The notes: generated from the sequence alone by a model not told the origin. 64,000 nucleotides of DNA from a virus (IMGVR_UViG_3300005528_000059:5409-69408), one strand, 5' to 3'. Counted from the stretch's first letter, positions 9,617 to 57,500 are shown. Translations and numbers: made by a program.

Positions 9617-10045
9617 ATGCAGACTAAAGAAACTGAGTTTTCAAAATTCGTGAGGACCACAGATAAAAGTTTTGACCTACGTCGTATCGAAACTGCCGAA
9701 GAGGATGGAACTGCGGATTTGCTTGGCTATCATGTGCCGACAGGGAAAGGTTTAACTATTGAGCTCAAGTCCCGACCAGTTAACAAACTAGGCAAAATTG
9801 ATATGCAACTCAAACCCGACCAGCGTATCTTCCTAAGATGGGCTACACACTTTTTAACTTCACTAGTTGTTGTTGATTTGCAGGACGAGCGTGTGCTAAT
9901 TCTTCCAGCGGTGAATACGTTAGGGTGGCATACAGGCACTCATCTAACCCAGGAGCTGCAGAGTTTGATCGACTTAGGTGGATTTGTCGTTCCAAAGGAG
10001 AAATTGCACGCTGCCCTTGCTGCCTACCTTACAAGGGCGGTTTAG
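9617..10045 (+). CDS. PD-(D/E)XK nuclease (VRR-NUC/resolvase-like)
   Basis: RIE..GTADLLG..TIELKS..LKPDQRIFLR; adjacent to an SNF2 helicase. Confidence 0.7.
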   Translation: MQTKETEFSKFVRTTDKSFDLRRIETAEEDGTADLLGYHVPTGKGLTIELKSRPVNKLGKIDMQLKPDQRIFLRWATHFLTSLVVVDLQDERVLILPAVNTLGWHTGTHLTQELQSLIDLGGFVVPKEKLHAALAAYLTRAV

Positions 10046-10120
10046 CCTGCCTAAGCCTTGCCCTACCCTATAGCACAAACAAGCCACAGCGCAGCGCCCC
10101 AGCCTCCTAAAAGGTCTATT
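10029..10120 (+). repeat. Dispersed ~90-bp degenerate element, copy A
   Basis: aagggcggttta..ccctaccc..gcgcccc agcctcctaaaaggtcta; no TC or GA dinucleotide from 10001 to 10105. Confidence 0.7.
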
Positions 10121-10121
10121 T

Positions 10122-11804
10122 ATGCAGCAAACCACCCAACCCAAGCTAAAGCTAGAGCGAGGTGCTATAGTTATAGAAGGTCAGATGTCTGACAAGCTAG
10201 AATATACGCTTGCGACACTTCCTGGAAAGAGTAAGCGGCTAAACGGCACAGTCTATATTCATGAGACACAGCAGAATATGGACTACATTATCAACAGACA
10301 TCCGAATATTCAAATGGATGGATATCTAAGATCAAAATATGTTATCTCATTTGACGATGAAGAATCTCAAGCCATTCCGGATTTTGCGAAAGACTATGTT
10401 TTTCACACCCAACCGTACAATCACCAGAAGAAAGATTTTTATAGATTCTGTGACGCTAATTTCTACGCCTTATTCTACGAGATGGGCGCTGGAAAAACTA
10501 AACTGGTCATCGATCTGACTGCAGTCAAATATCTAGCGGGTGATGTCAACACACTTATCGTTATTGCTCCCGGAGGTGTTCATCGACAATGGGCGGAAGA
10601 GCAGATACCAAAACATCTTCAGCCAGACATTCAAAGAATGTGTCATGTGTCGAGTGCTCGCGAATACAGAAAAGGTATTGACAACTTCGAGGAAGTCTTA
10701 GCGTTTGAGGGTTTAGCTGTTTTCTGTTTTCATTATCAAAGTGTCTCACTCGAAGACGGACCTGTACGAGATTTGATTAATCGAGTCATTCGTACTCGTA
10801 AGAAAGTTAAAGTAGTATTCGACGAGTCTACTGCGATTAAGAATGAAAAGTCTAACATCACAGAGTATATGCAAAGCCTTACCTCAAGAACAGTTTGTCG
10901 TGCGATTTTGGACGGCACACCTGTTACGAAAAATCTGTTCGATGTGTTTAGCCCCTTCAAGTTTTTAAGCCCAACAGTCTTCGGTGATAACTATTATGCT
11001 TATCGTGCTCAGTATGCTGTAATGGGTGGGTACAAGAATAAGAAAATCAAAGCGTACAAAAATCTTGATGAGGTTCAAAATAAGATTGACCGTTACGGAA
11101 GTCGTGTTCTGAAGAAGGATTGTATGGACCTTCCTGAGAAAATCATTGACTATACATTTACAGAATTGACACAGCAGCAGTTAGATACTTACTCGCTTTT
11201 GAAAGAGCAGTTTGTTATCGATATGAGCGAGGGTAAAATCCAAGACGTCGTTCGTGCTGCTAACAGAATTCAGATTCTTCAAGCTATCTTGTCAGGCTTC
11301 ATACCTAACCCCGAAGATAAGCCTAAGCGGATTGAAAGTAATCGTGCTACGACAATGGTCGAGTGGTTGCGCATGAACGAGAAGAAAACAATTATCTGGG
11401 CAAAATATCACGAAGAAATTGCTATAATCAGTGAGACGCTTGCTAGGAGCTTCAACGAAGGATTCGTTGTTTACTCCGGACTCCAGAACGATGATCAGAA
11501 ACAAGCAAATCTTAAAAGGTTTAAAACTGACCCAGGAACGCGCTTCATCATTGGCAGTAAGTCCATGGATCGAGGTCTAGACATAGTAGAAGGGAAACGG
11601 GCTTTCTGGTATTCACCGACTTACATGCTCGACCAGTATCTACAGGCTAACGATCGTATCCATCGTGGTGGTCAAACTGAGTCTGTGCACATTACCCGAT
11701 GCACAGCGGGCGGAAAATACGTAGACCAACAGGCTTGGGATACATTAGAGATGCGTAAGAACTTTGCGACTGAGCTGCTAGATGTTAGAAACAGTTTCTT
11801 ATAA
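10122..11804 (+). CDS. SNF2-family (SF2) helicase
   Basis: YEMGAGKT (motif I), FDES (II), LDGTP (III), RGLD, QANDRIHRGGQ (VI). Confidence 0.9.
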   Translation: MQQTTQPKLKLERGAIVIEGQMSDKLEYTLATLPGKSKRLNGTVYIHETQQNMDYIINRHPNIQMDGYLRSKYVISFDDEESQAIPDFAKDYVFHTQPYNHQKKDFYRFCDANFYALFYEMGAGKTKLVIDLTAVKYLAGDVNTLIVIAPGGVHRQWAEEQIPKHLQPDIQRMCHVSSAREYRKGIDNFEEVLAFEGLAVFCFHYQSVSLEDGPVRDLINRVIRTRKKVKVVFDESTAIKNEKSNITEYMQSLTSRTVCRAILDGTPVTKNLFDVFSPFKFLSPTVFGDNYYAYRAQYAVMGGYKNKKIKAYKNLDEVQNKIDRYGSRVLKKDCMDLPEKIIDYTFTELTQQQLDTYSLLKEQFVIDMSEGKIQDVVRAANRIQILQAILSGFIPNPEDKPKRIESNRATTMVEWLRMNEKKTIIWAKYHEEIAIISETLARSFNEGFVVYSGLQNDDQKQANLKRFKTDPGTRFIIGSKSMDRGLDIVEGKRAFWYSPTYMLDQYLQANDRIHRGGQTESVHITRCTAGGKYVDQQAWDTLEMRKNFATELLDVRNSFL

Positions 11805-11813
11805 GGAGTGCAC

Positions 11814-12446
11814 ATGAGCGACATCGACTTTGATGAGCTAGAGCAGGATTCCCAGCTTAGTTCAGTATCCGATAAACATTATGAAAATCTTTCTGAAGCT
11901 GTTGAAAAGCTAGCTATCCTTCGCGCACGTAAGGCTAAAGGCGAAACGTACATGAAGGAGATTGATGCTGAGATGGCTGATCTTCAACGTCGTGTCCTGC
12001 CAGCTATGATGGAAGCGGCAAGAACAAAAGACTTCACCTCCTTGGACACTGCTACCAAGGTGGAGATGAAGACCATCATCAAGGCTACCATGCCTAAAGA
12101 AAAAGATGATGACGATCATGATGAGCCGTACGAGGTACGGAAAAAGAAAGCTATTGGGTGGCTTGAAAGAAACAATCTTGATGATATTGTGGCACGCGAG
12201 ATTTCCGTGACACTTGGCAAAGACTCGACAGAGCTTGCCCAAAGACTTCTCGACGCCATACGACTAGCTTCGAATGGTGCCGTGGAGCCAGAACTGAAAG
12301 ATAGCGTCAATTATATGACGCTTAACGCAGTTCTAAAACGCCGTCTGGAGTCTGACCAAGAGGTTCCAACTTCAGAAGACGGCTTTGACGTTTTTACTGG
12401 CCGCATCGTAGATGTTGTGTCAGCTACAAAACGTAAGAGAACGTAA
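11814..12446 (+). CDS. Conserved phage replication-module protein
   Basis: aaggag RBS; WLE.N.L.DIV.REISVT.GK..V...TL.A.+K pattern; lies between the helicase and SSB-like genes. Confidence 0.6.
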   Translation: MSDIDFDELEQDSQLSSVSDKHYENLSEAVEKLAILRARKAKGETYMKEIDAEMADLQRRVLPAMMEAARTKDFTSLDTATKVEMKTIIKATMPKEKDDDDHDEPYEVRKKKAIGWLERNNLDDIVAREISVTLGKDSTELAQRLLDAIRLASNGAVEPELKDSVNYMTLNAVLKRRLESDQEVPTSEDGFDVFTGRIVDVVSATKRKRT

Positions 12447-12486
12447 GAGCAAGAAATAACTAACGAAAAACAAAGGACTAATAACT

Positions 12487-13449: not shown

Positions 13450-13480
13450 ACCCAACTTATCCGTTTTGAGGAGTATGAAA

Positions 13481-14203
13481 ATGAGTGAAGTCGAAGAAGT
13501 AGCAGCCGCAGAAGTTGAAGACAAAGCTGCGAAGGCCGCTGCAAAAGAAGCCGCGAAAGCTGCCAAGGCTGCTGAAGCTGCTGAAAAGAAAGCTGCAAAA
13601 GCTGCTGAGCGTGAAGCTGCGAAAGCCGCCAAGGCTGCTGAAAAGAAGGCTGAAGTTCCAGTGTTCGTCGGCCCTAACGCCGCGAGCGAAGGCACTGTTT
13701 ATGATCGCCTGCGCAAAGTAGTTTCGGGTGCTGAAGGTTTACCAATGGATGAGTTGATCACTCACACGATCACCAGCGGCTTTGTTGCTGATAATTCCAA
13801 GGCGTTCACCGACAAGCCAGCATCCTTCTTGCGCGGCTACTTCACCACGGGTATCCGCAAGGGCTTCTTTGCGACCACTGCTGGAGCAGTTTACACGAGC
13901 GAAAAGCGTCAGCAAGCTACTCGCAAGGTAGCCAAGGAAGTTCCAGAAAGCGCATCAGTTGTCCTGTTGGTGTTGCAGCAATTGGCAACTGTCGCAGCTG
14001 ATGGTGAAAGCAACGTCGGCGTGGGCGTCGAGCCTCAAGAAATTGTGAAGGCGTCCGAAAAGACGAAGTCCACAGTTAACAAGGCGCTGAAGAAGCTGGA
14101 AGAAGGCGGTTACATCGAGCTTGACCAAGTCGGTGAGCCTGACCCGAAGGACGTCGCTTTCCTTACCCAAAAAGGCTCGGATTACACAGTCGAAGCTGCG
14201 TAA
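13481..14203 (+). CDS. Ala/Lys-rich (histone H1-like) N-terminus plus C-terminal winged-HTH DNA-binding protein
   Basis: AAKAAAKEAAKAAKAAEAAEKKAA repeats; EIVKASEKTKSTVNKALKKLEEGGYI..AFLTQKG (MarR-like wHTH); gaggag RBS. Confidence 0.7.
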   Translation: MSEVEEVAAAEVEDKAAKAAAKEAAKAAKAAEAAEKKAAKAAEREAAKAAKAAEKKAEVPVFVGPNAASEGTVYDRLRKVVSGAEGLPMDELITHTITSGFVADNSKAFTDKPASFLRGYFTTGIRKGFFATTAGAVYTSEKRQQATRKVAKEVPESASVVLLVLQQLATVAADGESNVGVGVEPQEIVKASEKTKSTVNKALKKLEEGGYIELDQVGEPDPKDVAFLTQKGSDYTVEAA

Positions 14204-14269: not shown

Positions 14270-15163
14270 ATGCTTGTGAAGCCAATGTCTACTAGACCTA
14301 AGACTTACGAAGAAGCCCTGTCTCTTCTGGAATACTATCTTCATGAGAGGGAGAAAATTCGCTTAGCTAAACTCGGGGATAGTCACCCCACTTCAAGCGA
14401 CCCTATATTGAAAAAGTATAGGTTTACCAATGTCCTGCGCGCCCACGATCGTACTACTCAATGGGGTGTAGAGAACATCTACAAGCCTTTGATGGCTGAG
14501 GATGCAGGCGCAGAGATTATTCTTTTGAACGCTGGTATCTTTAGATACTTTGGCACGACTGACTTTTTCAAAGAGTTAGGCATTCAACGCGACTTCCAGC
14601 CTGAAGTTATCATTGGGAAAGCACGGGAAATGCGCGCTCGTGGCCAGAAAGTTTTTACGTCGGCTTACGTAATCACTAACGGTGGTATCAGTCTGCCAAA
14701 AGAAGAGGTCGTAGTCAACCATTACATCAGGGCATTGTACACTAATATTCCCGAGATTCTAGGGAACTACGAGAACAAATTTGAAATCTACGCAAAGCGT
14801 ATGTATCAGCTCAAGGGATTTGGTGGCACAGGTTTCATGACAAAGGAAGTTCTTTCCGATGTCCTCCTGTCAGGTGTAGTAGACTTCACTGACAAGTACG
14901 AGTGGAGTCCGGTTGGTCCTGGAGCCCTTCGTGGCTTAGGTTGGATGTTTCCGAACAGTCGCCACAATATTCCAAAAGGTGACAAAGCTGTCCCTCTTCT
15001 CCGTATGATTGCCAAGGACTTGAAGTTAGAGCCTTGGATGCCTCAGTTTGGAAAAGAGCTTGACCTTCACGGTATTCAATTTGCTATGTGCGAGCTTGAC
15101 AAATATGCGCGAACGCTATATGATGGCGGCGCACCTAAAGCAATCTACAAGCCCTACTTCTAA
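14270..15163 (+). CDS. aGPT-Pplase1 / 5-hmdU DNA kinase helical-domain family protein (HhH-glycosylase-like DNA-modification enzyme)
   Basis: ERE.IR..DPILKKYRFTNVLRAHDR, G.G.GFM.KEV.SD, GPGALRGL, CELDKYAR motifs. Confidence 0.85.
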   Translation: MLVKPMSTRPKTYEEALSLLEYYLHEREKIRLAKLGDSHPTSSDPILKKYRFTNVLRAHDRTTQWGVENIYKPLMAEDAGAEIILLNAGIFRYFGTTDFFKELGIQRDFQPEVIIGKAREMRARGQKVFTSAYVITNGGISLPKEEVVVNHYIRALYTNIPEILGNYENKFEIYAKRMYQLKGFGGTGFMTKEVLSDVLLSGVVDFTDKYEWSPVGPGALRGLGWMFPNSRHNIPKGDKAVPLLRMIAKDLKLEPWMPQFGKELDLHGIQFAMCELDKYARTLYDGGAPKAIYKPYF

Positions 15164-15177: not shown

Positions 15178-15999
15178 ATGACAAAAGAAATGAGAATTTA
15201 TATTCCCAGTCGGGGAAGAGCCGACCCACGGCTTCAATACACCTCAAGAATCCTTAACGATGCAGGTATCGTTCATTACCTAGTAGTTCGCCCAGACGAG
15301 ATGGAAGCATACCAAATAATGCTCAATCATCATGCCGATGAATTTCGTCACACAAAACTTCTCGATCGTCCAGAGTCCTGCACGAACTTGTCACAGACAC
15401 TTAGCCACTTGATTCGAGTATCCGCAGGGATTGGTGTGAACTGTTTGCTGCTAGATGACGATCTTCGTTTCAGCAGACGTATTAGCCAGAAAGGTCCAGA
15501 ACTCCGTAAGGCTGACCCTCAGGACATGCCTGAGCTTATCGCACGCTTAGCAGCACTTCTTGATGGTGACGTGAAGATGGCTGGTATTTCTGCCCGTACT
15601 ATGAACCAAAATCGCTATCCTGATACGGTTCAATACTGTGGTCGCCAGATGCAAGCTCACGCTATTGACACAGAGTTTTTCGTTGATGAGGGTATCGATC
15701 CTGCACGAGTTATCTGTAAGTCTGATTTTCACATGACGCTTTGCGTGTTGGAAGCGGGTTATCGTAACGCAATCATTTGTGATTACACCGTGGACCAAGC
15801 TTCTGGCTCGAACGCCAAAGGCGGAGTTTCTACCTACCGCACTGCTGAAGTTATCAATGAGGGTGCAGAGCTGCTAAAACAACTGCATCCCGACTACGTT
15901 AAGATCGTAGAAAAGGCTACCGTGTGGAAAGGCATGTCTGGCATCCGTAAGGAAGTCAACATCGGTTGGAAAAAAGCTTACAAGGAGGCTAAGTTATGA
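15178..15999 (+). CDS. GT-A fold DNA glycosyltransferase (TAGT/GREB1-like family)
   Basis: IYIPSRGR, LVV...E..AY, LLDDDL (DxD), DFH.TL..L..GY.N, SNAKGG.S.YRT, L...HP.YVK. Confidence 0.8.
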   Translation: MTKEMRIYIPSRGRADPRLQYTSRILNDAGIVHYLVVRPDEMEAYQIMLNHHADEFRHTKLLDRPESCTNLSQTLSHLIRVSAGIGVNCLLLDDDLRFSRRISQKGPELRKADPQDMPELIARLAALLDGDVKMAGISARTMNQNRYPDTVQYCGRQMQAHAIDTEFFVDEGIDPARVICKSDFHMTLCVLEAGYRNAIICDYTVDQASGSNAKGGVSTYRTAEVINEGAELLKQLHPDYVKIVEKATVWKGMSGIRKEVNIGWKKAYKEAKL

Positions 16000-17057
16000 A
16001 GACTATGTTAGAATCTACTCATCCCGATTACGGTCTTTTGTTTATCGCACGAGATGCAATGAACAATTCAGGTTGGATCAAGCGCGATAGTCGTGCTGGT
16101 TTCACAGTTGAGTTTGAAAGCCCTGTGATCGTCAAAAACAGCCGTTACTATATTTCGTCTTCGCCTGTTCGAGATGCTAATCCGTTCTTCCATTTGGCTG
16201 AGTCCCTTTGGATGCTTGCTGGTCGCCAGGACTTGGACTTTCTTCTTATCTTCAACTCCACCTTCGGCCAGTTTTCTGACGATGGCAAGTTTGTTCGCGG
16301 TTCGGCCTATGGTTATCGCTGGCGTGAATTCTTTGGCAAAAATCAGATTGCTAGTATTATCAATGAGTTACAGAATACTGCGTCGCGTCGTGCTGTTCTA
16401 ACACAGTGGTCTGTCGAAGACCTTAACATTGACTCCAAGGACGTTCCCTGCAACACTCAAACGTACTTCCTTGTTCGCAATGGCAAGTTAGACATGACTG
16501 TAGTCAACCGCTCAAACGATTTGATCTATGGAATGTACGGAAGCAACATTGTTCACTTCTCGATTTTGCATGAGTATATCGCTTCTGCGCTGAACATCGA
16601 GAAAGGCGATTACTACCAAATGTCAAATTGTTTGCACATCTACACGGATAACTCTGTGTTCCAAAAGATGCAAAGCAACTATCGTGCTGACTTCTCTGCT
16701 CCCGAAGTCGACAACGATTTGGCAGGCTATTGTGATAATCCTTACGGCTCATTGGTCCAAGCACCAATTGGTGACGCTGTGCAGTTCATGTCTGACCTCA
16801 CTGAATTTTTTAATAAATTCGATGAGTTGCGTAGTACTGCCCCCGATCGTGATGCTCTGGAAGATTTGGGCCTAGCTCTTGGGCAAATCCGAGATACGAC
16901 TTCCCCTTTGCTTCAAGATTTCTATCACATGGGCTTAGCCTGGATTTCTTTCAAGCGCAAACAGAAGCCTATTTGGTTGCCGAACGACGGTGGCACTATC
17001 TGGCGTTTCGTCAGTCAGAATTACCTGACACGTCGCAACAGGGAGATTCTTTCTTGA
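15996..17057 (+). CDS. Thymidylate-synthase-fold enzyme, probable dUMP hydroxymethylase
   Basis: RDANPFFHLAESLWMLAGR, AYGYRWR, SRRAVL, DVPCNT (catalytic Cys), NRSNDLIYGMYGSNIVHFS (Asn indicates dUMP specificity). Confidence 0.85.
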   Translation: MKTMLESTHPDYGLLFIARDAMNNSGWIKRDSRAGFTVEFESPVIVKNSRYYISSSPVRDANPFFHLAESLWMLAGRQDLDFLLIFNSTFGQFSDDGKFVRGSAYGYRWREFFGKNQIASIINELQNTASRRAVLTQWSVEDLNIDSKDVPCNTQTYFLVRNGKLDMTVVNRSNDLIYGMYGSNIVHFSILHEYIASALNIEKGDYYQMSNCLHIYTDNSVFQKMQSNYRADFSAPEVDNDLAGYCDNPYGSLVQAPIGDAVQFMSDLTEFFNKFDELRSTAPDRDALEDLGLALGQIRDTTSPLLQDFYHMGLAWISFKRKQKPIWLPNDGGTIWRFVSQNYLTRRNREILS

Positions 17058-17614
17058 TACAGAATCTAGCACACTTAGAGGATCGTTTGGATACGGGTGG
17101 TGTAACTCGCTACCACGCTGCCCCCGACGTAGAACCTCAGAATATTGCCGAACACTCTTGGAGGGTCTGTCAGACCCTCCTTTTCATTTATCCAGAGGCT
17201 TCTGCTGACTGCATGCGGTATGCCCTTGCCCACGACATGGATGAACGTTTCGTAGGGGATATTCCTTACTTTACAAAAGCAAAATTAGACATGTCGGTTG
17301 TCGAAGCCGAAGCAGACAAACTGTTAGACAACTTCATGGACTCCACGGATGTCCGTGGAACAAAACTTCAGAAGCACGAAAAACTACTTGTTGATTTCTG
17401 TGATCGATACGAGCTAACCGTTTACTGCCTTAGCCAAAGGACACGCGGGGGACGCCGTATAGCGCTCTCGGGTATTAGTATATGCTTGCGTACCCTAGAC
17501 GAGTTTAGAGCTATAGCTATTAGCGCCCCTGTTCTACGAACGCAAATCTATGCGTTAGCACGCACTATGGAGTTGCTAGTGTACGAGGCAAATCTATCTC
17601 TAAACAAAAATTGA
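17054..17614 (+). CDS. HD-domain 5'-deoxynucleotidase (YfbR-like)
   Basis: VTRYH..QNIAEHSWRV..ALAHDMDERFVGDIP..D..E; TTG start overlapping the upstream stop. Confidence 0.85.
   Translation: MIQNLAHLEDRLDTGGVTRYHAAPDVEPQNIAEHSWRVCQTLLFIYPEASADCMRYALAHDMDERFVGDIPYFTKAKLDMSVVEAEADKLLDNFMDSTDVRGTKLQKHEKLLVDFCDRYELTVYCLSQRTRGGRRIALSGISICLRTLDEFRAIAISAPVLRTQIYALARTMELLVYEANLSLNKN
17431..17540 (-). repeat. Dispersed element copy B, embedded in the HD gene
   Basis: Minus strand atacggcgtcccccgcgtgtcct matches copy D atacggccacgcccgcgtgtcct; TAG/CTA-rich. Confidence 0.5.
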
Positions 17615-17668: not shown

Positions 17669-18112
17669 ATGATTGACCAAGTAGGTGGTAGTCATTATTC
17701 TAGAGCAGGCAATTTCCAGCATTGGGATTTGTGGCTTCTTATTCGACCTTTTGACGGTAACATCCTTATCTACGCAGCTACCAAGTATCTTGCTCGCCTT
17801 GATATGAAAGAGCCTTTGGTGGGTGTTCGTAAGTCTATCTCTTATCTTGAGAAGTATCTTATCCACGTCAAGCAAAAAGCTGCTAATCCACAAGTGCCGT
17901 TTGCTGTCTGTATCTCCCAAGAGCCTACGCCACTTGATCGTATTCTTCAAACGCTTCCAACGGTTGAAACTGACCCACGCATCGTTGGTGTGTATATCGC
18001 TCTTAGCGGACATCCTACCTTGAGTACTGTCGAAAATTGCGTGAAAGTTCTTAAGTCCTACGTCGAGGACGAACAAAGAAAGCCTGTGGCGGCTGATGCT
18101 TTTAACATCTGA
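17669..18112 (+). CDS. DUF3310 (SaV-like) domain protein
   Basis: QVGGSHY..QHWD..ATKYLAR...K.....+RK...YLEK. Confidence 0.75.
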   Translation: MIDQVGGSHYSRAGNFQHWDLWLLIRPFDGNILIYAATKYLARLDMKEPLVGVRKSISYLEKYLIHVKQKAANPQVPFAVCISQEPTPLDRILQTLPTVETDPRIVGVYIALSGHPTLSTVENCVKVLKSYVEDEQRKPVAADAFNI

Positions 18113-20006
18113 TTTTCCAACCAGCCTGCCGAAAATACGTGTTGTCGATACAGAAACATGTGATCCACATCTAAAACGTCGAGGTCCAGGCTGGCCTTAT
18201 TATGACGTTGCAGAAGCCGGTATTATTGGGATAGGTGTTTTCTGTCCTGAAAATAACCAGAAATTCTACATACCTATCAATCATGCTAATAGTGAATGTG
18301 TAGATATTGACACTGCAATGCGATGGGCCGAGCAGGTTCTGTTTGATCCTGATTGCACAATGGTCTTTGCCAACGCCGAGTACGACTTAGGGTGGTTTCA
18401 TCATCACGGGGTAAAATACAACGGCTTCAAAATTGAGGATGTTCAAGTACAAGCTCCATTGATAAATGAGCATGAGTTTAGCTTCTCGCTCGAGAATCTT
18501 TCTCGACGTAACAAAGTCGCGCAGAAAAACGAAGAGGTACTTCTTCAATATGCTCAACAAGTTGGTATCGCTTCAAAAGATGTGAAAGCATCGTTGAGGT
18601 TCATGCCTGCTGATATCGTTGGGCAATACTGTGTAGACGACTGCATTGCAACATGGGAGAATTTTCAAGCGCAGCTTCCAGAAATGGAACGCCAAAACCT
18701 TTGGAGCATCTACGAGCTAGAGACTTCGCTTATACCGCACATGATCCCAATGCGTATGCGTGGCGTTCGTATTGACCAGGATCGTTGTGAGGTAGTCTCC
18801 AAGCAATTCTTCGATTTGGAGCAAGCGGCTCGCTCGGTTATCAAAGACCAGACCGGCATTCATGTTGAAAGCCCTTGGGCTTCAGCAGAGCTAGCCAAGG
18901 TATTGGATCATGTGGGTATTCCGTACCCTACTACTCCCAAAACTGGTAAACCTTCTATTAAGAAAGACTACATGGAAGGTCTACCTGAGCATCCTGTTAT
19001 TGATGCTATTATCGACTTCCGGAGGTTCAACAAAGCACGCACGACTTTTACTGAAGGCTTCTTTGACGAGTTCTGCATTAAGGGTCGTGTTCATACGAAC
19101 TTCAACTTGTTGAAAAGCGACGAAGGAGGCACCATCAGTGGAAGGTTATCTTCCGACAGCCCCAACATGCAGCAGATTCCTGCACGAGACCCTGAGATTG
19201 GTCCACTCGTTAGGTCGATCATCTTAGCTGAAGAGGATTGCTTATTCGCCTCGTTAGATTATTCCCAACAGGAGCCGCGACATACTGTTCACATGGCTTA
19301 TCTGTTGCGTAATGCTTCAGCAGCAGTCTTGCGTGAGCAATTCATTCTTAATCCTAAAACTGACTTCCATCAGATGAATTCTGACCTTACAGGTATTCCT
19401 CGTAAGGCAGTTAAGGAAATTGGTCTTGGCCTTGCTTACGGAATGGGCGGGGGTAAGCTAGCTCGAAAACTTCGACTTCCGTTTACTTTGTCTAACTTCC
19501 GTGGCAAAGAAATTGAGAAAGCTGGCCCAGAGGCGCAGGCACTCCTGGATAAATTTCATGCCCGTGCTCCGTACATCAAAGACTTAGGCAAAGAGTGTAA
19601 GAAGGCTGCTCAGTCGCGTGGCTATATTCGCACACCGATGGGCCGAGTTATCCACTTCCCAACAATCAACGGCGAAGTATGGAAGTCTCACAAAGCACTG
19701 AACGGCCTTATCCAAGGTATGAGTGCTGACGAAACTAAGCGAGCAATGGTCATGTGTGCGCAGGCAGGATTCCCATGTGCTTTACAAGTTCACGACGAGC
19801 TAAACTTTACGCAGTTCAGTAATCCTGAAGACACTTATGTTGTTGCGCAGATTATGCTGGATGCTATGATAACTTCTGTGCCTTCCAAGGTCGACGTTGA
19901 AATTGGTAAGAGCTGGGGTGAGTGTGAGTTGTATGAGTTTAAGACTCATACACTGAAACGTTCTTACGTGGAACGAGATAGCCAGGAGCTACTTTATGCA
20001 GCATAG
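18096..20006 (+). CDS. polA: DNA polymerase family A with 3'-5' exonuclease
   Basis: VDTET, ANAEYD (exo); SGRLSS.SPNMQQIP; DYSQQEPR (A); RKAVKEIGLGLAYG (B, Leu at the E. coli 762 position); QVHDEL (C). Confidence 0.97.
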   Translation: MLLTSDFPTSLPKIRVVDTETCDPHLKRRGPGWPYYDVAEAGIIGIGVFCPENNQKFYIPINHANSECVDIDTAMRWAEQVLFDPDCTMVFANAEYDLGWFHHHGVKYNGFKIEDVQVQAPLINEHEFSFSLENLSRRNKVAQKNEEVLLQYAQQVGIASKDVKASLRFMPADIVGQYCVDDCIATWENFQAQLPEMERQNLWSIYELETSLIPHMIPMRMRGVRIDQDRCEVVSKQFFDLEQAARSVIKDQTGIHVESPWASAELAKVLDHVGIPYPTTPKTGKPSIKKDYMEGLPEHPVIDAIIDFRRFNKARTTFTEGFFDEFCIKGRVHTNFNLLKSDEGGTISGRLSSDSPNMQQIPARDPEIGPLVRSIILAEEDCLFASLDYSQQEPRHTVHMAYLLRNASAAVLREQFILNPKTDFHQMNSDLTGIPRKAVKEIGLGLAYGMGGGKLARKLRLPFTLSNFRGKEIEKAGPEAQALLDKFHARAPYIKDLGKECKKAAQSRGYIRTPMGRVIHFPTINGEVWKSHKALNGLIQGMSADETKRAMVMCAQAGFPCALQVHDELNFTQFSNPEDTYVVAQIMLDAMITSVPSKVDVEIGKSWGECELYEFKTHTLKRSYVERDSQELLYAA

Positions 20007-23761: not shown

Positions 23762-25246
23762 ATGAACGCTGTTCGTCAAGTAAGTATGATAGCGGCACTT
23801 CGTGAAGCGGCTTTGCGAAAGGCCGCTAGCGAAAATCCAGCTGACTATTGTCGCTACGTGCTAGAAGTCGAACCTGCTGAGCATCACATATTGATGCTTA
23901 ATGAGCTGAACAGTGTTATCGAGGAGATGTTAAAAGGTCGCAGCGCCATGCGCTTGATGATCTTAGCTCCTCCTGGAAGTGCTAAATCAACTTATACGTC
24001 ACATGGATTTGCTTCCTATGCAATGGGAAGACTTCCTGCGGGTTATAACATCGCAGTGGGTACGCACACTGATGGCTTCTCGAAATCATGGAGTCGTAAA
24101 GTTCGTAACACCTGTCGATCACGCAGACACTTGAATGTGTTCCCTAACTCGGGGGTTAGCAAAGATCACGCTGCTGTTCAGGAATGGTCAACACTCGATA
24201 ATAAAGAGTTCTTCGGTAAAGGTGTAGGCGGGACGATCACTGGTAAGCGTGTAGACCTTTTGATTCTGGACGACTTAATCAAAGGCGAGAAGGCAGCTAA
24301 CTCCAAGGCTGATCGTCGCACAGTTATTGATTGGTACCTCACTGACGTATATACACGATTAAAGCCTGGAGCATCTATTGTCATCGTTAACACACGCTGG
24401 CATGAAGAAGACCTTCCAGGATATCTAATCGAGCAGATGGAAAACGGCGTCGGCGAGCCTTGGAAGATTCTTAAACTTCAAGCACTTTGCACCGATCCTG
24501 AAAACGACCCAATGAAACGCCAAGTCGGGGAGGTTCTCTGGCCTGGATGGCAACCTTTGGAAGAAATCCTGCGCATCCGCGATAAGTCTGGTATGAGCAC
24601 TCGGGTATTCGATTGCTTGTATCAACAGGAGCCTAAGTCCAAGGAAGGTTCGATAGTTCTACGTAAATGGTTCCTCACCTACACAGACGAGGAGCTACGT
24701 GTAGCACTTTCACATCCTAGGTCGCGTCTGTATATCAGTATAGATACCGCCGACACTAAAGATGCTAGAAATGACCCGACAGTTGCCTTAGTTATCCTGG
24801 AGCACGAAGGACGATCTTATCTGCTGAAAGAGTATCGAGAACGAAAAGAGTTCAACGAACTCAGCAAAGATATAAAGAGCCTCATTCGAGAAATGACTCT
24901 GAAGTATAAGAAGCCTACTGCTATCCTCGTAGAAGGTAAAGGTGGCGGCTTAGCTATCATCTCTGACTTGAAGAACGGTGTTAACGTTCCGGTCATTAAA
25001 ATCAACCCTAACGAAATCGGTGATAAAGAGTTCCGCTTTGACAAAGCTACACCTTACATCGAATCTGGGGCGTTCCTGCTACCTGATAAAGACTTGCCTT
25101 GGGTTGATGCTTACTTAGACGAATTAACGACTTTCCCAGCTTCCCGTAACGATGATCGAGTCGACTCAACCTCGCAATATATCAACTATATTCAGAATAA
25201 GCCAAAGAAACGGCGTTCAACGGGCAGGCGCACTGCCCACGGGTAA
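23762..25246 (+). CDS. terL: Terminase large subunit
   Basis: APPGSAKST (Walker A), GGTITGKR, LLILDD (Walker B), TRWHEEDL.G, YQQEP, SIDTA, NDDRVDS nuclease motif. Confidence 0.95.
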   Translation: MNAVRQVSMIAALREAALRKAASENPADYCRYVLEVEPAEHHILMLNELNSVIEEMLKGRSAMRLMILAPPGSAKSTYTSHGFASYAMGRLPAGYNIAVGTHTDGFSKSWSRKVRNTCRSRRHLNVFPNSGVSKDHAAVQEWSTLDNKEFFGKGVGGTITGKRVDLLILDDLIKGEKAANSKADRRTVIDWYLTDVYTRLKPGASIVIVNTRWHEEDLPGYLIEQMENGVGEPWKILKLQALCTDPENDPMKRQVGEVLWPGWQPLEEILRIRDKSGMSTRVFDCLYQQEPKSKEGSIVLRKWFLTYTDEELRVALSHPRSRLYISIDTADTKDARNDPTVALVILEHEGRSYLLKEYRERKEFNELSKDIKSLIREMTLKYKKPTAILVEGKGGGLAIISDLKNGVNVPVIKINPNEIGDKEFRFDKATPYIESGAFLLPDKDLPWVDAYLDELTTFPASRNDDRVDSTSQYINYIQNKPKKRRSTGRRTAHG

Positions 25247-25330
25247 ACTAGGAAGCGCGGGCGCTGCCTGTGGAGGCAATCCTATAGCGGGCATGGGCAA
25301 CGCACTAGCAAGGTAAACCGCCTTTACACT
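25245..25330 (-). repeat. Dispersed element copy C
   Basis: Minus strand aaggcggtttaccttgctagtgcgttgcccatgcccgctataggattgcctccacaggcagcgcccgcgcttcctag aligns with copies A, F and H. Confidence 0.7.
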
Positions 25331-25414
25331 ACATTTAGTTGAAAATTGTGCCAGTTTGCTCGCACACTACTAGATATGGTAGTTTGGGGGTTCCCTAAAG
25401 CTTTGGAGCGCGTT

Positions 25415-27349: not shown

Positions 27350-27372
27350 GCTAACTGCCACTAAGCAAAAGA

Positions 27373-27401
27373 AAAAGGCCCTAGCATTGCTAGGGCCTTT
27401 T
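27373..27401. terminator. Bidirectional intrinsic terminator between convergent genes
   Basis: aaaaggccctagc-att-gctagggcctttt. Confidence 0.85.
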
Positions 27402-27505
27402 ATGTGCCTAGGACACGCGGGCGTGGCCGTATGAGTGGGTTCAGGGTTGCTTGCTTAGGGTAGCCTAGCCCAACCTAAAAACAGGCTAGTGAGCGCTTTA
27501 TTAGG
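27402..27505 (-). repeat. Dispersed element copy D
   Basis: Minus strand ataaagcgctcac..tttaggttgggctagg....ccta versus copy G ataaacggctcac..tttaggtttggctagg....ccta. Confidence 0.75.
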
Positions 27506-37820: not shown

Positions 37821-37876
37821 CTGGCATTTGCCTGTAGAGGCTTTATGCTAGGTAATAGTTAAGTAGGGAGATAACT

Positions 37877-42786: not shown

Positions 42787-42895
42787 GCCCTATAAACGGC
42801 TCACCGCTGGCGTGTTTAGGTTTGGCTAGGGTTGCCTAGCCAAACCTATTGATTGCCGTGTAGGGCTTTGCCCGTGGCTCTAGAAAGCATCTAAT
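42787..42895 (+). repeat. Dispersed element copy G, with a perfect 14-bp hairpin
   Basis: taggtttggctagg-gttg-cctagccaaaccta (42817-42848); TA steps at 42817, 42827, 42837, 42847; tail gattgccgtgtagggctttgcccgtggctctag. Confidence 0.8.
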
Positions 42896-42938
42896 TGTAA
42901 AGCTAGGGCTTAGCTAGCAAACCGCTGGAGGTAATTTT

Positions 42939-44372: not shown

Positions 44373-44767
44373 GTGCGGTATCTGAAGTTCTTATCCCACT
44401 TGCAGTATGTGCTGGACTTGTCGTAGTCGTAACAGCTCTTACCCTAGGCGCTATGCTTTTTATTGGCTACGTCCGTGGGGAGATCTATCATGCAACTAGA
44501 GTTTGTCCAATCTGGAGTGAGACACTCAACGAACTAATGGATAGTGATGTCCCTGTTGAACGACGACCTGCACAGGATTGGGTTGCTCTAGGTCCTGTCA
44601 TAATTTTTGTTGGTGACTACCCTGACAACTATGGACACGAGTCTGGGCACAGGGATTATCCTGATCGTAAGACACAGAAACGTCTTAAAGAGTACATCGC
44701 TCGCAAACACGCTATTGAAATCTTTGACAAAGTAGCTGACAACTTAAATGTTGCAAAGAACCCCTGA
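44369..44767 (+). CDS. Membrane-anchored protein, paralogue 2
   Basis: Same motifs as the previous gene. Confidence 0.7.
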   Translation: MSAVSEVLIPLAVCAGLVVVVTALTLGAMLFIGYVRGEIYHATRVCPIWSETLNELMDSDVPVERRPAQDWVALGPVIIFVGDYPDNYGHESGHRDYPDRKTQKRLKEYIARKHAIEIFDKVADNLNVAKNP

Positions 44768-44778
44768 CACCGTAGGGT
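44751..44778 (+). promoter_or_regulatory. Phage promoter
   Basis: TTGCAA-N16-TAGGGT. Confidence 0.7.
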
Positions 44779-44812
44779 GTAATTTAAAGCACAGCTAGTA
44801 GGAGCGTAGTAC

Positions 44813-45118: not shown

Positions 45119-45368
45119 TCCAAAGTTACTTCAGAATTCCTTTGAGGAGTTTTGTAGACTTGTCTACCCAGAAGCTGCTCTTCAACAGCAACAGGAGATG
45201 CGTCTTTGTTTCATGGCTGGTGCCGAGAGTCTTCGCCGGTTGATGTCCAAAGCCGGAGAGCATGGGATTGAGGGAGTAGCTATTATAGATGAGTACATCT
45301 ATGAGGAGTTATCTACTTTTCATGAAAACACTATATCGTTGTTTGAATTTGAAGGAACACCACAATGA
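45108..45368 (+). CDS. Hypothetical protein
   Basis: aagga RBS at ATG 45108. Confidence 0.55.
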   Translation: MSNNPKLLQNSFEEFCRLVYPEAALQQQQEMRLCFMAGAESLRRLMSKAGEHGIEGVAIIDEYIYEELSTFHENTISLFEFEGTPQ

Positions 45369-45766
45369 GCGACGAACAATCCAAGTATTGGATTTACAAA
45401 ATCAGTGGCGAAGAAGAACTTTTTGCTCTAAGACATGCAAATCCTATAAATCACTACGACGCAGCTAGGCTAGCCTCCGAGGATTATTTTCTCTATCGTG
45501 GTCAACGAGCCTTCGTAGAAGAAGGCGAAGACATAGAGATAATGGTTCGTTGTCCAGAAGGCAAAACCTCTTTCCATACCGTTCGTTGGGAAGAAGAGAT
45601 TCTCTGTCGCAGCAATGCAGTTATTCCAGGTACTGATTTCTACCAGAGAGTAGCCCAACGTTTTGGAGTTTCTCGCGAAGTAGCTAAGAAAGTTACCCTT
45701 GCTCGCTCTTACGGAGGAGGCAGGGAAATTGTAGAGCAGATGCTGGGAGAACTAAATGAACGATGA
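45365..45766 (+). CDS. Hypothetical protein with a C-terminal PolA fingers (motif B)-like segment
   Basis: PGTDFYQRVAQRFGVSREVAKKVTLARSYGGG aligns ungapped with the phage PolA PKTDFHQMNSDLTGIPRKAVKEIGLGLAYGMG. Confidence 0.65.
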   Translation: MSDEQSKYWIYKISGEEELFALRHANPINHYDAARLASEDYFLYRGQRAFVEEGEDIEIMVRCPEGKTSFHTVRWEEEILCRSNAVIPGTDFYQRVAQRFGVSREVAKKVTLARSYGGGREIVEQMLGELNER

Positions 45767-45953
45767 ACAGAAAATTGCCTATGTGAATGGACAAATCGCT
45801 TGTGCTCAAATTGAAGCTATGGGTATGGTAGCTGATAATGCTTACTGGCAAAGCCTAGGTCAAGCTCCAGCGTACACTCTTACGCACTTCCAAGACTTGA
45901 TTTACAAGTATGGCATTCACAACAATGCTATCATAGAATTCTTCAGAGACTAG
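45756..45953 (+). CDS. Hypothetical phage protein
   Basis: ggag RBS; IEAMGM.A.N motif. Confidence 0.6.
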   Translation: MNDEQKIAYVNGQIACAQIEAMGMVADNAYWQSLGQAPAYTLTHFQDLIYKYGIHNNAIIEFFRD

Positions 45954-46510: not shown

Positions 46511-46524
46511 CGAGTAATAAGCCC

Positions 46525-46552
46525 TTGCAAGGAAGCTAGGATTGCCTAGGGT
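46525..46552 (+). promoter_or_regulatory. Phage promoter
   Basis: TTGCAA-N16-TAGGGT. Confidence 0.7.
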
Positions 46553-46596
46553 GTAGCTATGGCGCTGGTAGCGCTGACTATGCGTAGGAGCAAGTT

Positions 46597-46986
46597 ATGA
46601 ACGTTGAGAACTTCAAGTTAGTTCGTGAGCACGTCGCACTTAACGAAGAATTTCACATGGAAAACATGCGCACAGAGTGTGGAACTCCTGCTTGTGTTAT
46701 GGGAAGTGCTGAAGCGATTATTCGCAGCCTGTATGAGTCTGGAGCGCTCTCAGAAGGAAAATCGCCTTTATATCCTTGTGGGAGATACGTCGATCAAATC
46801 TTCATGCGTGAGTGGCTAGGTGTGGACTCTGTTGAGTTTGATCAAATTTTTCTTGGTAATTTCTCCAGGAACTATCTTAGCAATATTCGCAAGGCAGAAG
46901 TTCTTGCTTACCTTGATTTATGTATCGAGCGTGGCGAAATCGTTTTTGACGAGTTCGAATGGCCTCGTGTTTTGTGGGGAGATTAG
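46597..46986 (+). CDS. CGxxAC-motif protein, paralogue 1
   Basis: MNVENFKLVREHVA..F.M..CGTPACVMGSAEAII..WL..AE..A.LD.CIE. Confidence 0.7.
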   Translation: MNVENFKLVREHVALNEEFHMENMRTECGTPACVMGSAEAIIRSLYESGALSEGKSPLYPCGRYVDQIFMREWLGVDSVEFDQIFLGNFSRNYLSNIRKAEVLAYLDLCIERGEIVFDEFEWPRVLWGD

Positions 46987-46987
46987 T

Positions 46988-47380
46988 ATGAATATCGAGA
47001 ACTTCAAATTGCTTCGCGATCATGTTGCGGCAAATAGCAAATTCAGTATGAATTCGATAACGCATCGGTGTGGTTCTGCAGCCTGTATCATGGGTAGTGC
47101 TGAAGCGATTATTCTGTCACAGACAGAGAATCCTCGTATTAGCGAGTTTACTTTCCATGATGTAAATGGTCGCTTGCGCGTTTGTTCATACTATATTCGT
47201 TCTAAGTGGCTAGATATCAGTTTTGCTGAGTACGATCATATTTATATGGGAAATTTCTCTATTTACCCAAGTATGGATCAAATTACTCAAGCTGAGGCTG
47301 TAGCATTCTTGGATATGTGCATCGAATCTGAGCATGTGTTCTTAGGCCAAGTAGTTTTCGTTCCGGAGGAAATGCTATGA
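46988..47380 (+). CDS. CGxxAC-motif protein, paralogue 2
   Basis: MNIENFKLLRDHVA..CGSAACIMGSAEAII; start moved to ATG 46988. Confidence 0.7.
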   Translation: MNIENFKLLRDHVAANSKFSMNSITHRCGSAACIMGSAEAIILSQTENPRISEFTFHDVNGRLRVCSYYIRSKWLDISFAEYDHIYMGNFSIYPSMDQITQAEAVAFLDMCIESEHVFLGQVVFVPEEML

Positions 47381-47730
47381 AGAAAGAAAATTGGCAGCAA
47401 CTTTATGACGACGTAGCAGACAATCAAGATTTTAACATGATAGATTTTCTCCACCCGTGCGGAACCGCTGCCTGTCTTCTTGGACATGTTGCTACACTTA
47501 TGATACCTAGCACAGAATCTCAAGATGAGGAAGAGCTGCTTAAAAAACGTGAAAAGTTAATCCGCACTGGTGATCAGGAAATGGCCGATTGGTTAGGTAT
47601 CACTTTAAATCAGCTTCCTGAATTTTACGTTGGCTCCTGGGCAGGAAAAGGCATAAGCTGCATCACGAAAGAGGATGCGTTGTATTGGCTCAACGAGTGT
47701 CTTGAAAAAGGCGAAGTAACTCGTATTTAA
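47377..47730 (+). CDS. CGxxAC-motif protein, paralogue 3
   Basis: MKKENWQQLYDDVA..FNM..CGTAACLLGH..WLGI..L.ECLE.GE. Confidence 0.7.
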   Translation: MKKENWQQLYDDVADNQDFNMIDFLHPCGTAACLLGHVATLMIPSTESQDEEELLKKREKLIRTGDQEMADWLGITLNQLPEFYVGSWAGKGISCITKEDALYWLNECLEKGEVTRI

Positions 47731-47759
47731 TGTTCTGAGCGGGTGCTTAGGCGTTTTGG

Positions 47760-47870
47760 CACCCAAGCGCACAATTTGGACGTTTTAGGAGCCACGGGGC
47801 AAGCCAAGGGAGGCACTCTTGCGGGTAGGGTGCTAGGGTTATGCCCTAGGTTAAACCGCCCGCTGGCGAG
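47760..47870 (-). repeat. Dispersed element copy H
   Basis: Minus strand gggcggtttaacctagggcataaccctagcaccctaccc..ttgccccgtggctcctaaaacgtcca aligns with copies A and G. Confidence 0.75.
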
Positions 47871-47917
47871 CAATTTGTGGCGCTCGTGTATTTTGCATCC
47901 CGTGGAAACAATTAACC

Positions 47918-47945
47918 TTGTGTTGAAGCCTAGACGCTTTAGGGT
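47918..47945 (+). promoter_or_regulatory. Phage promoter
   Basis: TTGTGT-N16-TAGGGT. Confidence 0.6.
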
Positions 47946-47983
47946 TATGGCTTAGGCAGTTATTTGACCGTAGGGGTAAACAC

Positions 47984-48733
47984 ATGGAAAGAAAACTTAG
48001 CAGTGAGAGCTTGAAATTACTATGTCAAGCTTCTTTTTCCTGTAGGGAAGAAATGCAGCATTTGAACGATAAGAATATGGCACTGCGTCAGCATAGTGCT
48101 GAGATAGCAAGTAACTTAGAAAAATACCAAACATCGCTAGCTGCGGGTGTGAACAGTGACGGTTTTCACTATGTTTATTTTCAAAATTCAACTATCTTTG
48201 ACAAGCCTTCTATGCTTTCGCCTTCTATGTTGTTGTCAACTATCAGCGAGAGTCGCAAGGCGTTGGTTACTAACAGGCTAGAGATCGAAGATAACGAGCG
48301 TCAGATCGATGAGCTCGACCGTCTCATGGAATTGTATGACGAAGATGCAATTGCTTTTGGCATTGTACCGGAGCCCACTTCAGAGGCTTCTGCTGCTGTA
48401 AATGAGTTACTTGCTACAATCGAAAATCCTCTTGGGGATTTGCTCAATATCAAAACGCGCATCCTCGTTAAAGGTATCGCTTGTGATGTGCAGGAAGTTT
48501 TCCTGAAGGTGCAAGAGATCGTAGTTAGTCTTGTCAGTATGGAAAAACAGCAAGTTGAAGCTGATACGTTTCTTCATGACGACGTGGGTATGGACGACTT
48601 AGACTTCGTTGACCTCATACTCCGCCTGCAAGAAGAGTTTGATTGCTGCATTCGCACGGCTGATGTCCATGGCTGGCGAACAGTAGGCGATGTCGTGCGC
48701 ACTGTCATGAACAACTCAAAGGTGGCTCACTAA
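47984..48733 (+). CDS. Coiled-coil protein fused to an acyl-carrier-protein-like domain lacking the phosphopantetheine Ser
   Basis: KVQEIV..V..DTFLHDDVGMDDLDFVDLILRLQEEFD..I......TVGDVV; the DSLD motif reads DDLD. Confidence 0.75.
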   Translation: MERKLSSESLKLLCQASFSCREEMQHLNDKNMALRQHSAEIASNLEKYQTSLAAGVNSDGFHYVYFQNSTIFDKPSMLSPSMLLSTISESRKALVTNRLEIEDNERQIDELDRLMELYDEDAIAFGIVPEPTSEASAAVNELLATIENPLGDLLNIKTRILVKGIACDVQEVFLKVQEIVVSLVSMEKQQVEADTFLHDDVGMDDLDFVDLILRLQEEFDCCIRTADVHGWRTVGDVVRTVMNNSKVAH

Positions 48734-49874: not shown

Positions 49875-49892
49875 CTACCGATAACAAAGTGC

Positions 49893-49920
49893 TTGTATCT
49901 TGCTGCCGATGGCTTAGGGT
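49893..49920 (+). promoter_or_regulatory. Phage promoter
   Basis: TTGTAT-N16-TAGGGT. Confidence 0.7.
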
Positions 49921-49952
49921 AGTTTTGTAAAGCAACAACACAGAGGCGCAAC

Positions 49953-56507: not shown

Positions 56508-56529
56508 TACTTTCGCTAAAGGATAGGTC

Positions 56530-56742
56530 ATGGTCAAGAAGTTCGTAATGAAGCATCTAGTCTTTAAAAGAGCTGAGCCGGAGGAATTCGACGAAACAAC
56601 TGCTCCAGATTGGCTGACATCAAACAACACTATCAAAGGATCAACTATGGATAATCGTTGGTTCTGGGACGATTACGTACTGAAACTGAAAGTAGGCAAA
56701 TCAATAGATACGGATTTCCATAGAATCACACGCATAGCATAA
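56530..56742 (+). CDS. Hypothetical protein
   Basis: aagga RBS. Confidence 0.55.
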   Translation: MVKKFVMKHLVFKRAEPEEFDETTAPDWLTSNNTIKGSTMDNRWFWDDYVLKLKVGKSIDTDFHRITRIA

Positions 56743-56764
56743 CTTCCTAGGGAAAACTTAATTG

Positions 56765-56792
56765 TTGTAATGACGCCATGATGGCGTAAGGT
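56765..56792 (+). promoter_or_regulatory. Phage promoter
   Basis: TTGTAA-N16-TAAGGT; the spacer holds the palindrome cgccat-g-atggcg. Confidence 0.65.
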
Positions 56793-56827
56793 GGGCTTGT
56801 GTTTAAGGCAAGTAGGAGCCCGCAATC

Positions 56828-57346
56828 ATGTTCAAAGTTATTGAACAGTACACTATTCTCACCAGCACCTATGGTGTAGAGAAAATTGACAACCGGACCT
56901 ATGCCGCTTGGGTTGACGGCTGTCTTCTTGACAAAGCTGCATCAATTCACGCAGTTCGTCAATTTCTGCTCAACCATGCTAAGAACAAACTAGCAGACTT
57001 AGCTTCTGAGCTTGTACAGAAAGCAAGGCATGTTGATGAAGCCTTGGCCTCGCTAGATCGAGAAGAGCATGCGCTGGCTAGAAGCGTAGCGCAAGCAACC
57101 GCTCGTCCTGAAACTGAAGCGGCTCGTATCGTTTACGACGCTCTGTTAGATAGTGGTGTGGCTTTCACTGTCAATGGCGCAAGTAGCGGCCTTCATATCT
57201 TCCACATGTGGAACCCTGACGTTTACATCAGGTGTTTAGAAGATGATAATATGCCAGGAGTTCCGCGCCCTGAGGCTTGGGATGGTATCTTTATCTGTGG
57301 CACTTCAGCAGCTCGGCAGTTCTATTTAATGCTCACGCTAGACTAA
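56828..57346 (+). CDS. Hypothetical protein
   Basis: Promoter and aggag RBS. Confidence 0.65.
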   Translation: MFKVIEQYTILTSTYGVEKIDNRTYAAWVDGCLLDKAASIHAVRQFLLNHAKNKLADLASELVQKARHVDEALASLDREEHALARSVAQATARPETEAARIVYDALLDSGVAFTVNGASSGLHIFHMWNPDVYIRCLEDDNMPGVPRPEAWDGIFICGTSAARQFYLMLTLD

Positions 57347-57500
57347 AGGGCGGTGCTAAATGAGGGCCTAGGGTGCGTTGTGGCGCTTGGGTAGCTTGGC
57401 GCGTGGGTAGCCTAGGGCTTTGTATCGCCCGTAGTCTAGGAAGCGTTTGTAGTTGGTAGAGGTAGGGTGGGCGTGGTAGTTTGGCGCGTGGCTTGCAGTT
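57343..57500 (+). repeat. Dispersed element copy I, with a G-rich flank
   Basis: aagggcggtgcta..tagggctttgtatcgcccgtagtctaggaagc versus copy G tagggctttgcccgtggctctagaaagc. Confidence 0.6.

Follow-up and report, generated by a model that had tools for sequence, protein, structure and literature searches.

A TC/GA deficit in the regulatory DNA of a phage carrying a thymidine-hypermodification gene cluster

In the genome of an uncultured freshwater phage, known from the IMG/VR virus record IMGVR_UViG_3300005528_000059 (69,408 nt, completeness estimate 69%), the spacer ahead of a SNF2 helicase gene and the end of the gene before it form a run of 105 nt with neither a TC dinucleotide nor a GA, its counterpart on the other strand. 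What has kept this one step out of this and other non-coding islands of the genome, and could the cause be a hypermodification of thymidine, for which the same genome carries candidate enzyme genes? We analysed bases 5409-69408 of the record (64 kb, G+C 46%), hereafter the window, in which all positions are counted. The initial annotation of this DNA had listed several TC/GA-poor islands from hand counts, and these were reproduced exactly: 0 sites in 105 nt at 10001-10105, 3 in 120 at 25221-25340, 5 in 180 at 27341-27520, 4 in 150 at 32111-32260 and 5 in 158 at 57343-57500.

A compositional rule in particular non-coding elements

The whole window holds 8601 TC and GA sites (0.1344 per nt), and the observed/expected ratios are 1.07 for TC and 1.10 for GA. 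A gap of 105 nt free of both has a probability of about 3e-7 per start, which gives an expectation of about 0.003 over 8601 starts (hand calculation). Patterns were counted on both strands, islands included, in 31 gaps between open reading frames (ORFs; 2977 nt) and in 8 coding loci (12,100 nt). The counts cover the four mixed dinucleotide classes, those made of one A/T and one G/C base, which control for one another because their expectation is equal. Three gaps were subsequently dropped, namely L003 (a 56-aa ORF), L018 (a tRNA) and L021 (overlap with a 71-aa ORF), leaving 28.

Coding, 8 loci, 12,100 nt: TC/GA 1655, CT/AG 1579, TG/CA 1630, GT/AC 1452
Intergenic, 31 loci, 2977 nt: TC/GA 249, CT/AG 473, TG/CA 330, GT/AC 347
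Intergenic, 28 loci, 2433 nt: TC/GA 174, CT/AG 383, TG/CA 282, GT/AC 288

The density of TC/GA is 0.072 per nt in the 28 intergenic loci, as compared with 0.137 in coding DNA, and its share of the four mixed classes is 15.4% as compared with 26.2% (hand-calculated z of approximately -8). Of the other classes in these spacers, CT/AG is raised, and TG/CA and GT/AC stay close to normal. The loss had been claimed for both strands, and the deficit is indeed strand-symmetric as well as specific to TC/GA among the four classes. It is also uneven. Nine loci, a subset picked after the data had been seen, hold only 43 TC/GA in 1068 nt, and near-normal values are found in the spacers at 5252 (13 TC/GA in 105 nt at 5252-5356), 9518, 14204, 22507, 35660, 61609 and 61966, and in a repeat-rich region of 620 nt at the end of the record. 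Because several spacers have normal TC/GA, the deficit is not a mere consequence of non-coding composition, an explanation that had been named as one of those that would refute the proposal; it tracks particular elements. Two of the islands extend into coding sequence (10001-10045 and 32186-32260).

The elements that the deficit follows are a dispersed element in four copies, hairpins with a CTAG core, and a promoter-like family together with its downstream leaders. The islands and the features within them are as follows.

10001-10105, unstranded: TC/GA-free run of 105 nt, comprising the last 15 codons of the ORF 9617-10045 and the spacer ahead of the SNF2 helicase gene
10016-10116, minus strand: inverted copy E1 of the dispersed element (model R1, 77.3 bits, E 7e-23; also by alignment), with an exact TAAACCGCC
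25239-25343, plus strand: copy E2 of the dispersed element (model R1), in the spacer 25247-25414 between the terminase and ribonucleotide reductase genes, 8 TC/GA in 169 nt
27350-27500, unstranded: island between convergent genes, with a terminator-like hairpin (27366-27397) and then a G-rich tract, 5 TC/GA in 151 nt
32115-32185, unstranded: divergent promoter-like spacer with a motif at 32122-32149, 1 TC/GA in 71 nt
35081-35137, plus strand: promoter-like motif 35084-35111 and leader, 4 TC/GA in 57 nt, two of them in the Shine-Dalgarno box
37102-37412, plus strand: two promoter-like motifs (37109-37136 and 37356-37383) on either side of a 59-aa ORF
37722-37876, unstranded: island holding the weak fourth copy of the element (37722-37797, minus strand, E 0.0017) and a long hairpin with a CTAG core (37741-37771, z -3.15), 8 TC/GA in 152 nt
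42787-42938, unstranded: island with a 14-bp hairpin with a CTAG core (42817-42848, z -4.46), 6 TC/GA in 152 nt
44751-44812, plus strand: promoter-like motif 44751-44778 and leader; spacer 44768-44812 with 1 TC/GA in 45 nt
46511-46596, plus strand: island with promoter-like motif 46525-46552, 5 TC/GA in 86 nt
47731-47983, plus strand: island absent from the initial annotation, with element copy E3 (47776-47879) and promoter-like motif 47918-47945, 13 TC/GA in 253 nt
49875-49952, plus strand: promoter-like motif 49893-49920 and leader, 4 TC/GA in 78 nt
56743-56827, plus strand: promoter-like motif 56765-56792 and leader, 6 TC/GA in 85 nt
57347-57512, plus strand: G/T-rich island in which GGCGCGTGG words recur, its 5' part G-rich and folded (57347-57430, z -3.0), 7 TC/GA in 166 nt

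The dispersed element is approximately 100 nt long, and the alignment of its copies has a mean column identity of 66%. Counted by eye, copies in both orientations hold 10 TC/GA in 318 aligned nt. A search of a phage collection with the element DNA gave no match, and an Rfam scan of the window returned, at the gathering score, only the tRNA at 33987-34059, with no match in the islands and elements. The possibility that the element is a structured RNA was considered and rejected: its consensus fold is weak (-13.25 kcal/mol), and three copies fold no better than shuffled sequences (z -0.4 to -1.3). The GGCGCGTGG word, when two mismatches are allowed, is not enriched in the window (98 occurrences against 109 expected). 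A leader with stops in all three frames, followed by GGGAG and an ATG, is conserved at 37389-37415 and 37853-37879, in each case ahead of a small gene (repeat family D19).

The promoter-like family is described by TTGY-N18-TANNGT, which occurs 13 times where 4.56 +/- 2.1 occurrences are expected, a number reached in none of 100 shuffles. The plus strand carries eleven of the 13 copies, which mostly stand immediately ahead of a gene. The first box is TTGY and never TTGA, and the corresponding TTGR-N18-TANNGT stands at chance (4 against 3.85), all four copies lying inside coding sequence. A scan with the generic sigma-70 consensus gave no excess over chance (33 against 29.3), so the TTGY-N18-TANNGT copies are putative promoters. 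Most predicted promoters had been described as free of TC/GA from the -10 box to the Shine-Dalgarno, and at eight of the listed sites we count none in approximately 164 nt (by eye); the claim does not extend to the site at 40545, where the ATG overlaps the -10 box and leaves no stretch to count. Across 11 sites of the family, 3 TC/GA are present in approximately 244 nt between the second box and the Shine-Dalgarno (by eye).

The spacer densities of the window and of three other phages were each divided by the background density of the same genome; in the comparison phages TC/GA and TG/CA were counted. One of these, a relative designated G001, has a PolA protein 46% identical to that of the window and a syntenic cluster that includes the kinase gene described below; its spacers were taken from ORF gaps.

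Window, 28 loci, 2433 nt: TC/GA 0.52, TG/CA 0.86, CT/AG 1.21, GT/AC 0.98
G001, 12 spacers, 1048 nt: TC/GA 0.54, TG/CA 0.94
SH-Ab 15599, with a known TG context, 20 annotated spacers, 3019 nt: TC/GA 0.84, TG/CA 0.77
LuckyBarnes, with a kinase, two glycosyltransferases and a thymidylate synthase (TS), 17 spacers, 2514 nt: TC/GA 0.82, TG/CA 0.945

The G001 spacers contain 97 TC/GA (0.093 per nt against a background of 0.17) and 118 TG/CA (0.113 against 0.12). Model R1 found no copy of the dispersed element in two G001 loci (L202 and L277, approximately 40 kb of the 76-kb record), so the deficit is conserved even though homology to the element is not detectable there. The compositional rule in regulatory DNA is thus real and kept in one relative. 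Since SH-Ab 15599 and LuckyBarnes are without it, the strong deficit belongs to this lineage and is not general in kinase-bearing phages. We also observed that in L202 and L277 as a whole TC/GA (0.17 per nt) is well above TG/CA (0.12), and that the early genes of G001 lie on the strand opposite to that of the window. In LuckyBarnes, the spacers 45279-45412 and 45677-45804 have their first ten match positions identical for TC/GA and likewise for TG/CA, with different totals, which points to an intergenic repeat at least about 100 nt long.

Candidate hypermodification genes and the possible origin of the deficit

Pfam scans, which covered 29 ORFs of the window, revealed a putative thymidine-hypermodification cluster. 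Modification enzymes had been placed at 14.3-16 kb, and the cluster occupies 14.3-17.6 kb.

14270-15163, plus strand: 5-hydroxymethyldeoxyuridine (5-hmdU) DNA kinase gene (PF18723, 1.5e-29, 103.7 bits against a cut-off of 25)
15178-15999, plus strand: gene for a TET-associated-glycosyltransferase-like (TAGT-like) protein (PF20691, 2.6e-9, 37.7 bits against a cut-off of 27.5)
15996-17057, plus strand: TS homologue, candidate dUMP hydroxymethylase (PF00303, 3.5e-21)
16973-17614, plus strand: HD-domain phosphohydrolase, candidate remodeller of the nucleotide pool, with an uncertain ORF start (PF13023, 4.4e-10)

In a genome search the kinase was recovered at 4e-31, with none of 14 control genomes matched, and its identity to the kinases of the phage collection is 29% or lower. 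The tblastn matches of the glycosyltransferase-like protein are phage genes annotated as glucosyl transferases (PhiJL001 and LuckyBarnes). The TS homologue is a candidate hydroxymethylase, as PF00303 does not separate hydroxymethylase from methylase. The aGPT-Pplase family, which supplies the transferase acting on the phosphorylated base in characterised systems, had no match among the scanned ORFs, and the kinase is adjoined by the TAGT-like glycosyltransferase instead. Thymidine in the DNA of this lineage is very probably hypermodified. The gene immediately ahead of the kinase, 13466-14203, encodes a protein that combines Lys/Ala/Glu-rich repeats (13502-13633) with a C-terminal winged-helix domain; speculatively, this is a candidate for a protein that binds the dispersed elements.

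Of the T contexts in the window, 24.9% are TC (8601 of 34,488), and in known phages with partial replacement of thymidine the replaced fraction is of the order of a quarter. That hypermodification depends on sequence context, as the initial annotation took to be established, agrees with the literature. Lee et al. (2018) described conversion of 5-hmdU "in a sequence-specific fashion", with motifs then unknown. Flodman et al. (2019) observed that the restriction-resistant sites of phages M6, ViI and phiW-14 contain TG or TC and credited the preference to the kinase, and a 2026 paper in NAR on phage SH-Ab 15599 placed the modification mainly at TG, less at TC and rarely at TT or TA. In these publications, a preference set by the 3' neighbour of T is already in print and a preference for TC only is not. 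The positions of hypermodified thymidines in phage genomes are known only roughly, from restriction panels, because sequencing platforms map these bases unreliably. Our literature search for islands free of a modification context found no description of them, although it was in part too broad to be informative.

These elements can be combined into one mechanism. 5-hmdU would be incorporated in place of T, the DNA kinase would mark those hmU residues that precede C, and the neighbouring transferase would add a bulky group at the marked positions. Selection would act at the DNA level: elements whose reading requires an unmodified duplex on an injected, already modified genome would keep T only before A, G or T. 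That the DNA is modified, that TC is the modification context and that modification there harms the elements are suppositions on our part. Of the mechanisms considered, TC-specific hypermodification with TC purged from regulatory DNA is the best single one, plausible rather than proven, and we hold it tentatively. We are slightly more hesitant about its full form, in which a kinase-glycosyltransferase pathway modifies only T before C, about a quarter of T, and that step has been purged on both strands from promoters, leaders and dispersed protein-binding elements.

Several observations favour TC-specific modification, which had already been proposed in the initial annotation. The cluster (kinase, glycosyltransferase-like protein, TS homologue and HD hydrolase) is present; TC is one of the two contexts (TG and TC) given in the literature; the share of T that precedes C is comparable to the levels of partial replacement in known phages; only TC/GA is low among the four mixed classes; the deficit is independent of the orientation of the element and of the strand; it is conserved in G001, where the element itself is not detectable in the loci searched; and the first box of the promoter-like family takes the form TTGY to the exclusion of TTGA. 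Other observations weigh against the proposal and leave it standing only in part. The window shows no depletion of TG, for which the documentation in other phages is best. A TC preference has to be assumed for the window kinase, a distant relative of those in the phage collection. SH-Ab 15599 has not purged its own TG context from its spacers (TG/CA 0.106 per nt against 0.138 overall), TC/GA being similarly placed (0.109 against 0.130). LuckyBarnes, which has the same type of cluster, shows no purge either (TC/GA 0.117 against 0.141, TG/CA 0.133 against 0.141). Within the window, TC/GA occurs between the two promoter boxes, in Shine-Dalgarno boxes, in the terminators at 9541 and 34153, in the spacer 5252-5356 already mentioned and in the terminal region 63381-64000 (51 in 620 nt). 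Lastly, T7 RNA polymerase is reported to be affected only moderately, or in a mixed way, when its promoter contains natural hypermodified uracils.

Another possible explanation, which we rate about as doubtful as the full form of the mechanism above, is a lineage-specific regulatory vocabulary unlinked to modification, in which recurrent words recognised by host or phage proteins (TAGGGT, CTAGG..CCTAG, GGCGCGTGG and TAAACCGCC) simply happen to be without TC/GA. TAGGGT is enriched (35 occurrences against 17.7 +/- 3.8 expected, 11 of them plus-strand copies in spacers), and CTAG, which is at expectation overall (239 against 244), is yet clustered in the islands. The four-copy element and the enriched promoter-like motif fit such a vocabulary well, as do the normal TC/GA of spacers that lack these elements and the restriction of the deficit to the window phage and G001, with none in SH-Ab 15599 or LuckyBarnes. 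However, a vocabulary gives no reason why unrelated types of sequence (dispersed element, hairpins, leaders and G-rich tracts) should all lose one and the same step on both strands. The copies of the element have diverged to 66% identity and still hold only about 10 TC/GA in 318 nt, although about one third of random changes would create a TC/GA (hand estimate), and in G001 the spacers show the depletion although no homology to the element is detectable.

A constraint on the RNA seems improbable to us. Leaders and intercistronic regions would, in this case, avoid GA because it creates decoy ribosome sites and UC because CUCC-like words pair with the Shine-Dalgarno, and TAG and TAA stops in every frame would raise CT/AG. 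Leaders such as CTAACTAAGTAGGGAG do have stops in three frames and then a Shine-Dalgarno box, many GA that persist belong to a Shine-Dalgarno box located at the 3' end of its locus, and in the nine most depleted loci the plus strand has 13 TC against 30 GA. Inverted copies of the element are, however, equally depleted (E1, none in 105 nt), every TC/GA context is affected beyond words resembling the Shine-Dalgarno, the deficit reaches the -35-like hexamers and the spacer between convergent genes, and the three element copies that were folded lack a significant structure. Least likely of all, and by our estimate very improbable, is avoidance of a nuclease with a short TC/GA-containing site, or context-specific decay (deamination of C in TC) under weak selection: either might be expected to remove one step symmetrically from both strands, but TC and GA are not under-represented across the window, GATC is close to expectation (10 against 13.3 in a 3.4-kb sample), other weakly constrained spacers are normal, and the islands are G+C-rich, with TT in the first of them at 6 against about 3.8 expected (by eye) rather than the TT/AA excess of decay.

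If TC-specific hypermodification is the cause, the specificity of an unknown DNA modification could be read from the bare sequence, including that of uncultured phages; phage genomes could hold modification-free regulatory islands, and bulky base modifications would have a cost for gene regulation around which genomes evolve. If the link to modification fails, what stays is a set of regulatory elements, conserved and specific to the lineage, that obey a compositional rule of other, unexplained origin, and a caution against inferring modification chemistry from composition.

The phage and other features of the window

The Pfam scans identified a replication module consisting of a SNF2 helicase, PolA, a 5'-3' exonuclease, a RecD-like helicase, a primase/helicase, a ligase and a class II ribonucleotide reductase, as well as genes for a large terminase and a capsid-family protein. 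The closest cultured relatives by PolA, at approximately 39% identity, are M6/YuA/PaMx11/Ab18-like Pseudomonas phages and Bordetella MW2-like phages. DNA-level searches of the phage collection gave no match. PolA homologues with 63% and 61% identity exist on other contigs; profile scans of viral and metagenome contigs gave only relatives at 41% identity or lower, the patterns being generic PolA motifs, and a scan of genome contigs with the PolA query P0004 found only Prevotella PolA at 25-29% identity. A protein identical to the window PolA (18096-20006) is recorded on 4 contigs, the longest of 100,733 nt, so that the genome, when complete, may measure about 100 kb and not 69 kb. The window sequence was detected in 10 public runs, in all of them as contigs, labelled as freshwater and 'fungus' metagenomes. 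Contigs of essentially the same phage came from four runs, with 32 listed differences, too few to test for an avoidance of TC/GA-creating changes.

The tRNA gene at 33987-34059 (72.9 bits) stands among early genes, with a strong terminator-like hairpin downstream (34153-34177), and has very deep cover from other organisms in the public runs. Three paralogous genes of approximately 120-130 codons each are arranged in tandem at 46597-47730 (repeat families D7 and D11), and 47984-48733 encodes an early-region protein with a phosphopantetheine-attachment (carrier-protein) domain (2.8e-7). Two large structural, tail-fibre-like genes have internal repeats of approximately 123-126 nt and 72 nt at 2982-3766 and 7584-8368. 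The non-coding record end, 63381-64000, has iteron-like repeats of GGTCGT and GGAAT and a 28-nt inverted repeat (63811-63915); an origin or a terminal region may lie here, and the TC/GA content, as given above, is not low.

Comparison with known systems

Like M6, ViI, phiW-14 and SH-Ab 15599, the window phage has a PF18723 kinase beside a TS homologue and a nucleotide hydrolase, and the published specificity of those systems depends on the 3' neighbour of T (TG or TC), the same level at which the deficit of the window is seen. It differs from them in the TAGT-like glycosyltransferase next to its kinase, no aGPT-Pplase being matched among the 29 scanned ORFs. SH-Ab 15599 has, moreover, no purge of its known TG context in spacers. 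Brevibacterium phage LuckyBarnes has kinase, glycosyltransferase and TS genes side by side, as in the window, but is unrelated in lineage and host, and its spacers are without a deficit of TC/GA or TG/CA; our literature searches found no characterisation of its DNA modification.

The avoidance of restriction sites and other short words in phage genomes resembles the pattern described here in that a short word is missing far beyond chance. That avoidance is genome-wide and concerns sites of 4-6 bp, whereas the present dinucleotide is at or above expectation in the window and missing from particular non-coding elements; the ratios and GATC count given above show no such broad under-representation. 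A further parallel comes from lytic phages with promoter families and dispersed intergenic repeats, as the window has a four-copy element of approximately 100 nt and an enriched two-box motif upstream of genes, but our literature searches found no description of a shared loss of one dinucleotide in such families. Vertebrate CpG islands are likewise regulatory islands defined by the dinucleotide that a genome-wide base modification targets. There, mutational decay elsewhere in the genome leaves the target enriched in the islands, whereas in the phage islands the target is absent, presumably through selection.

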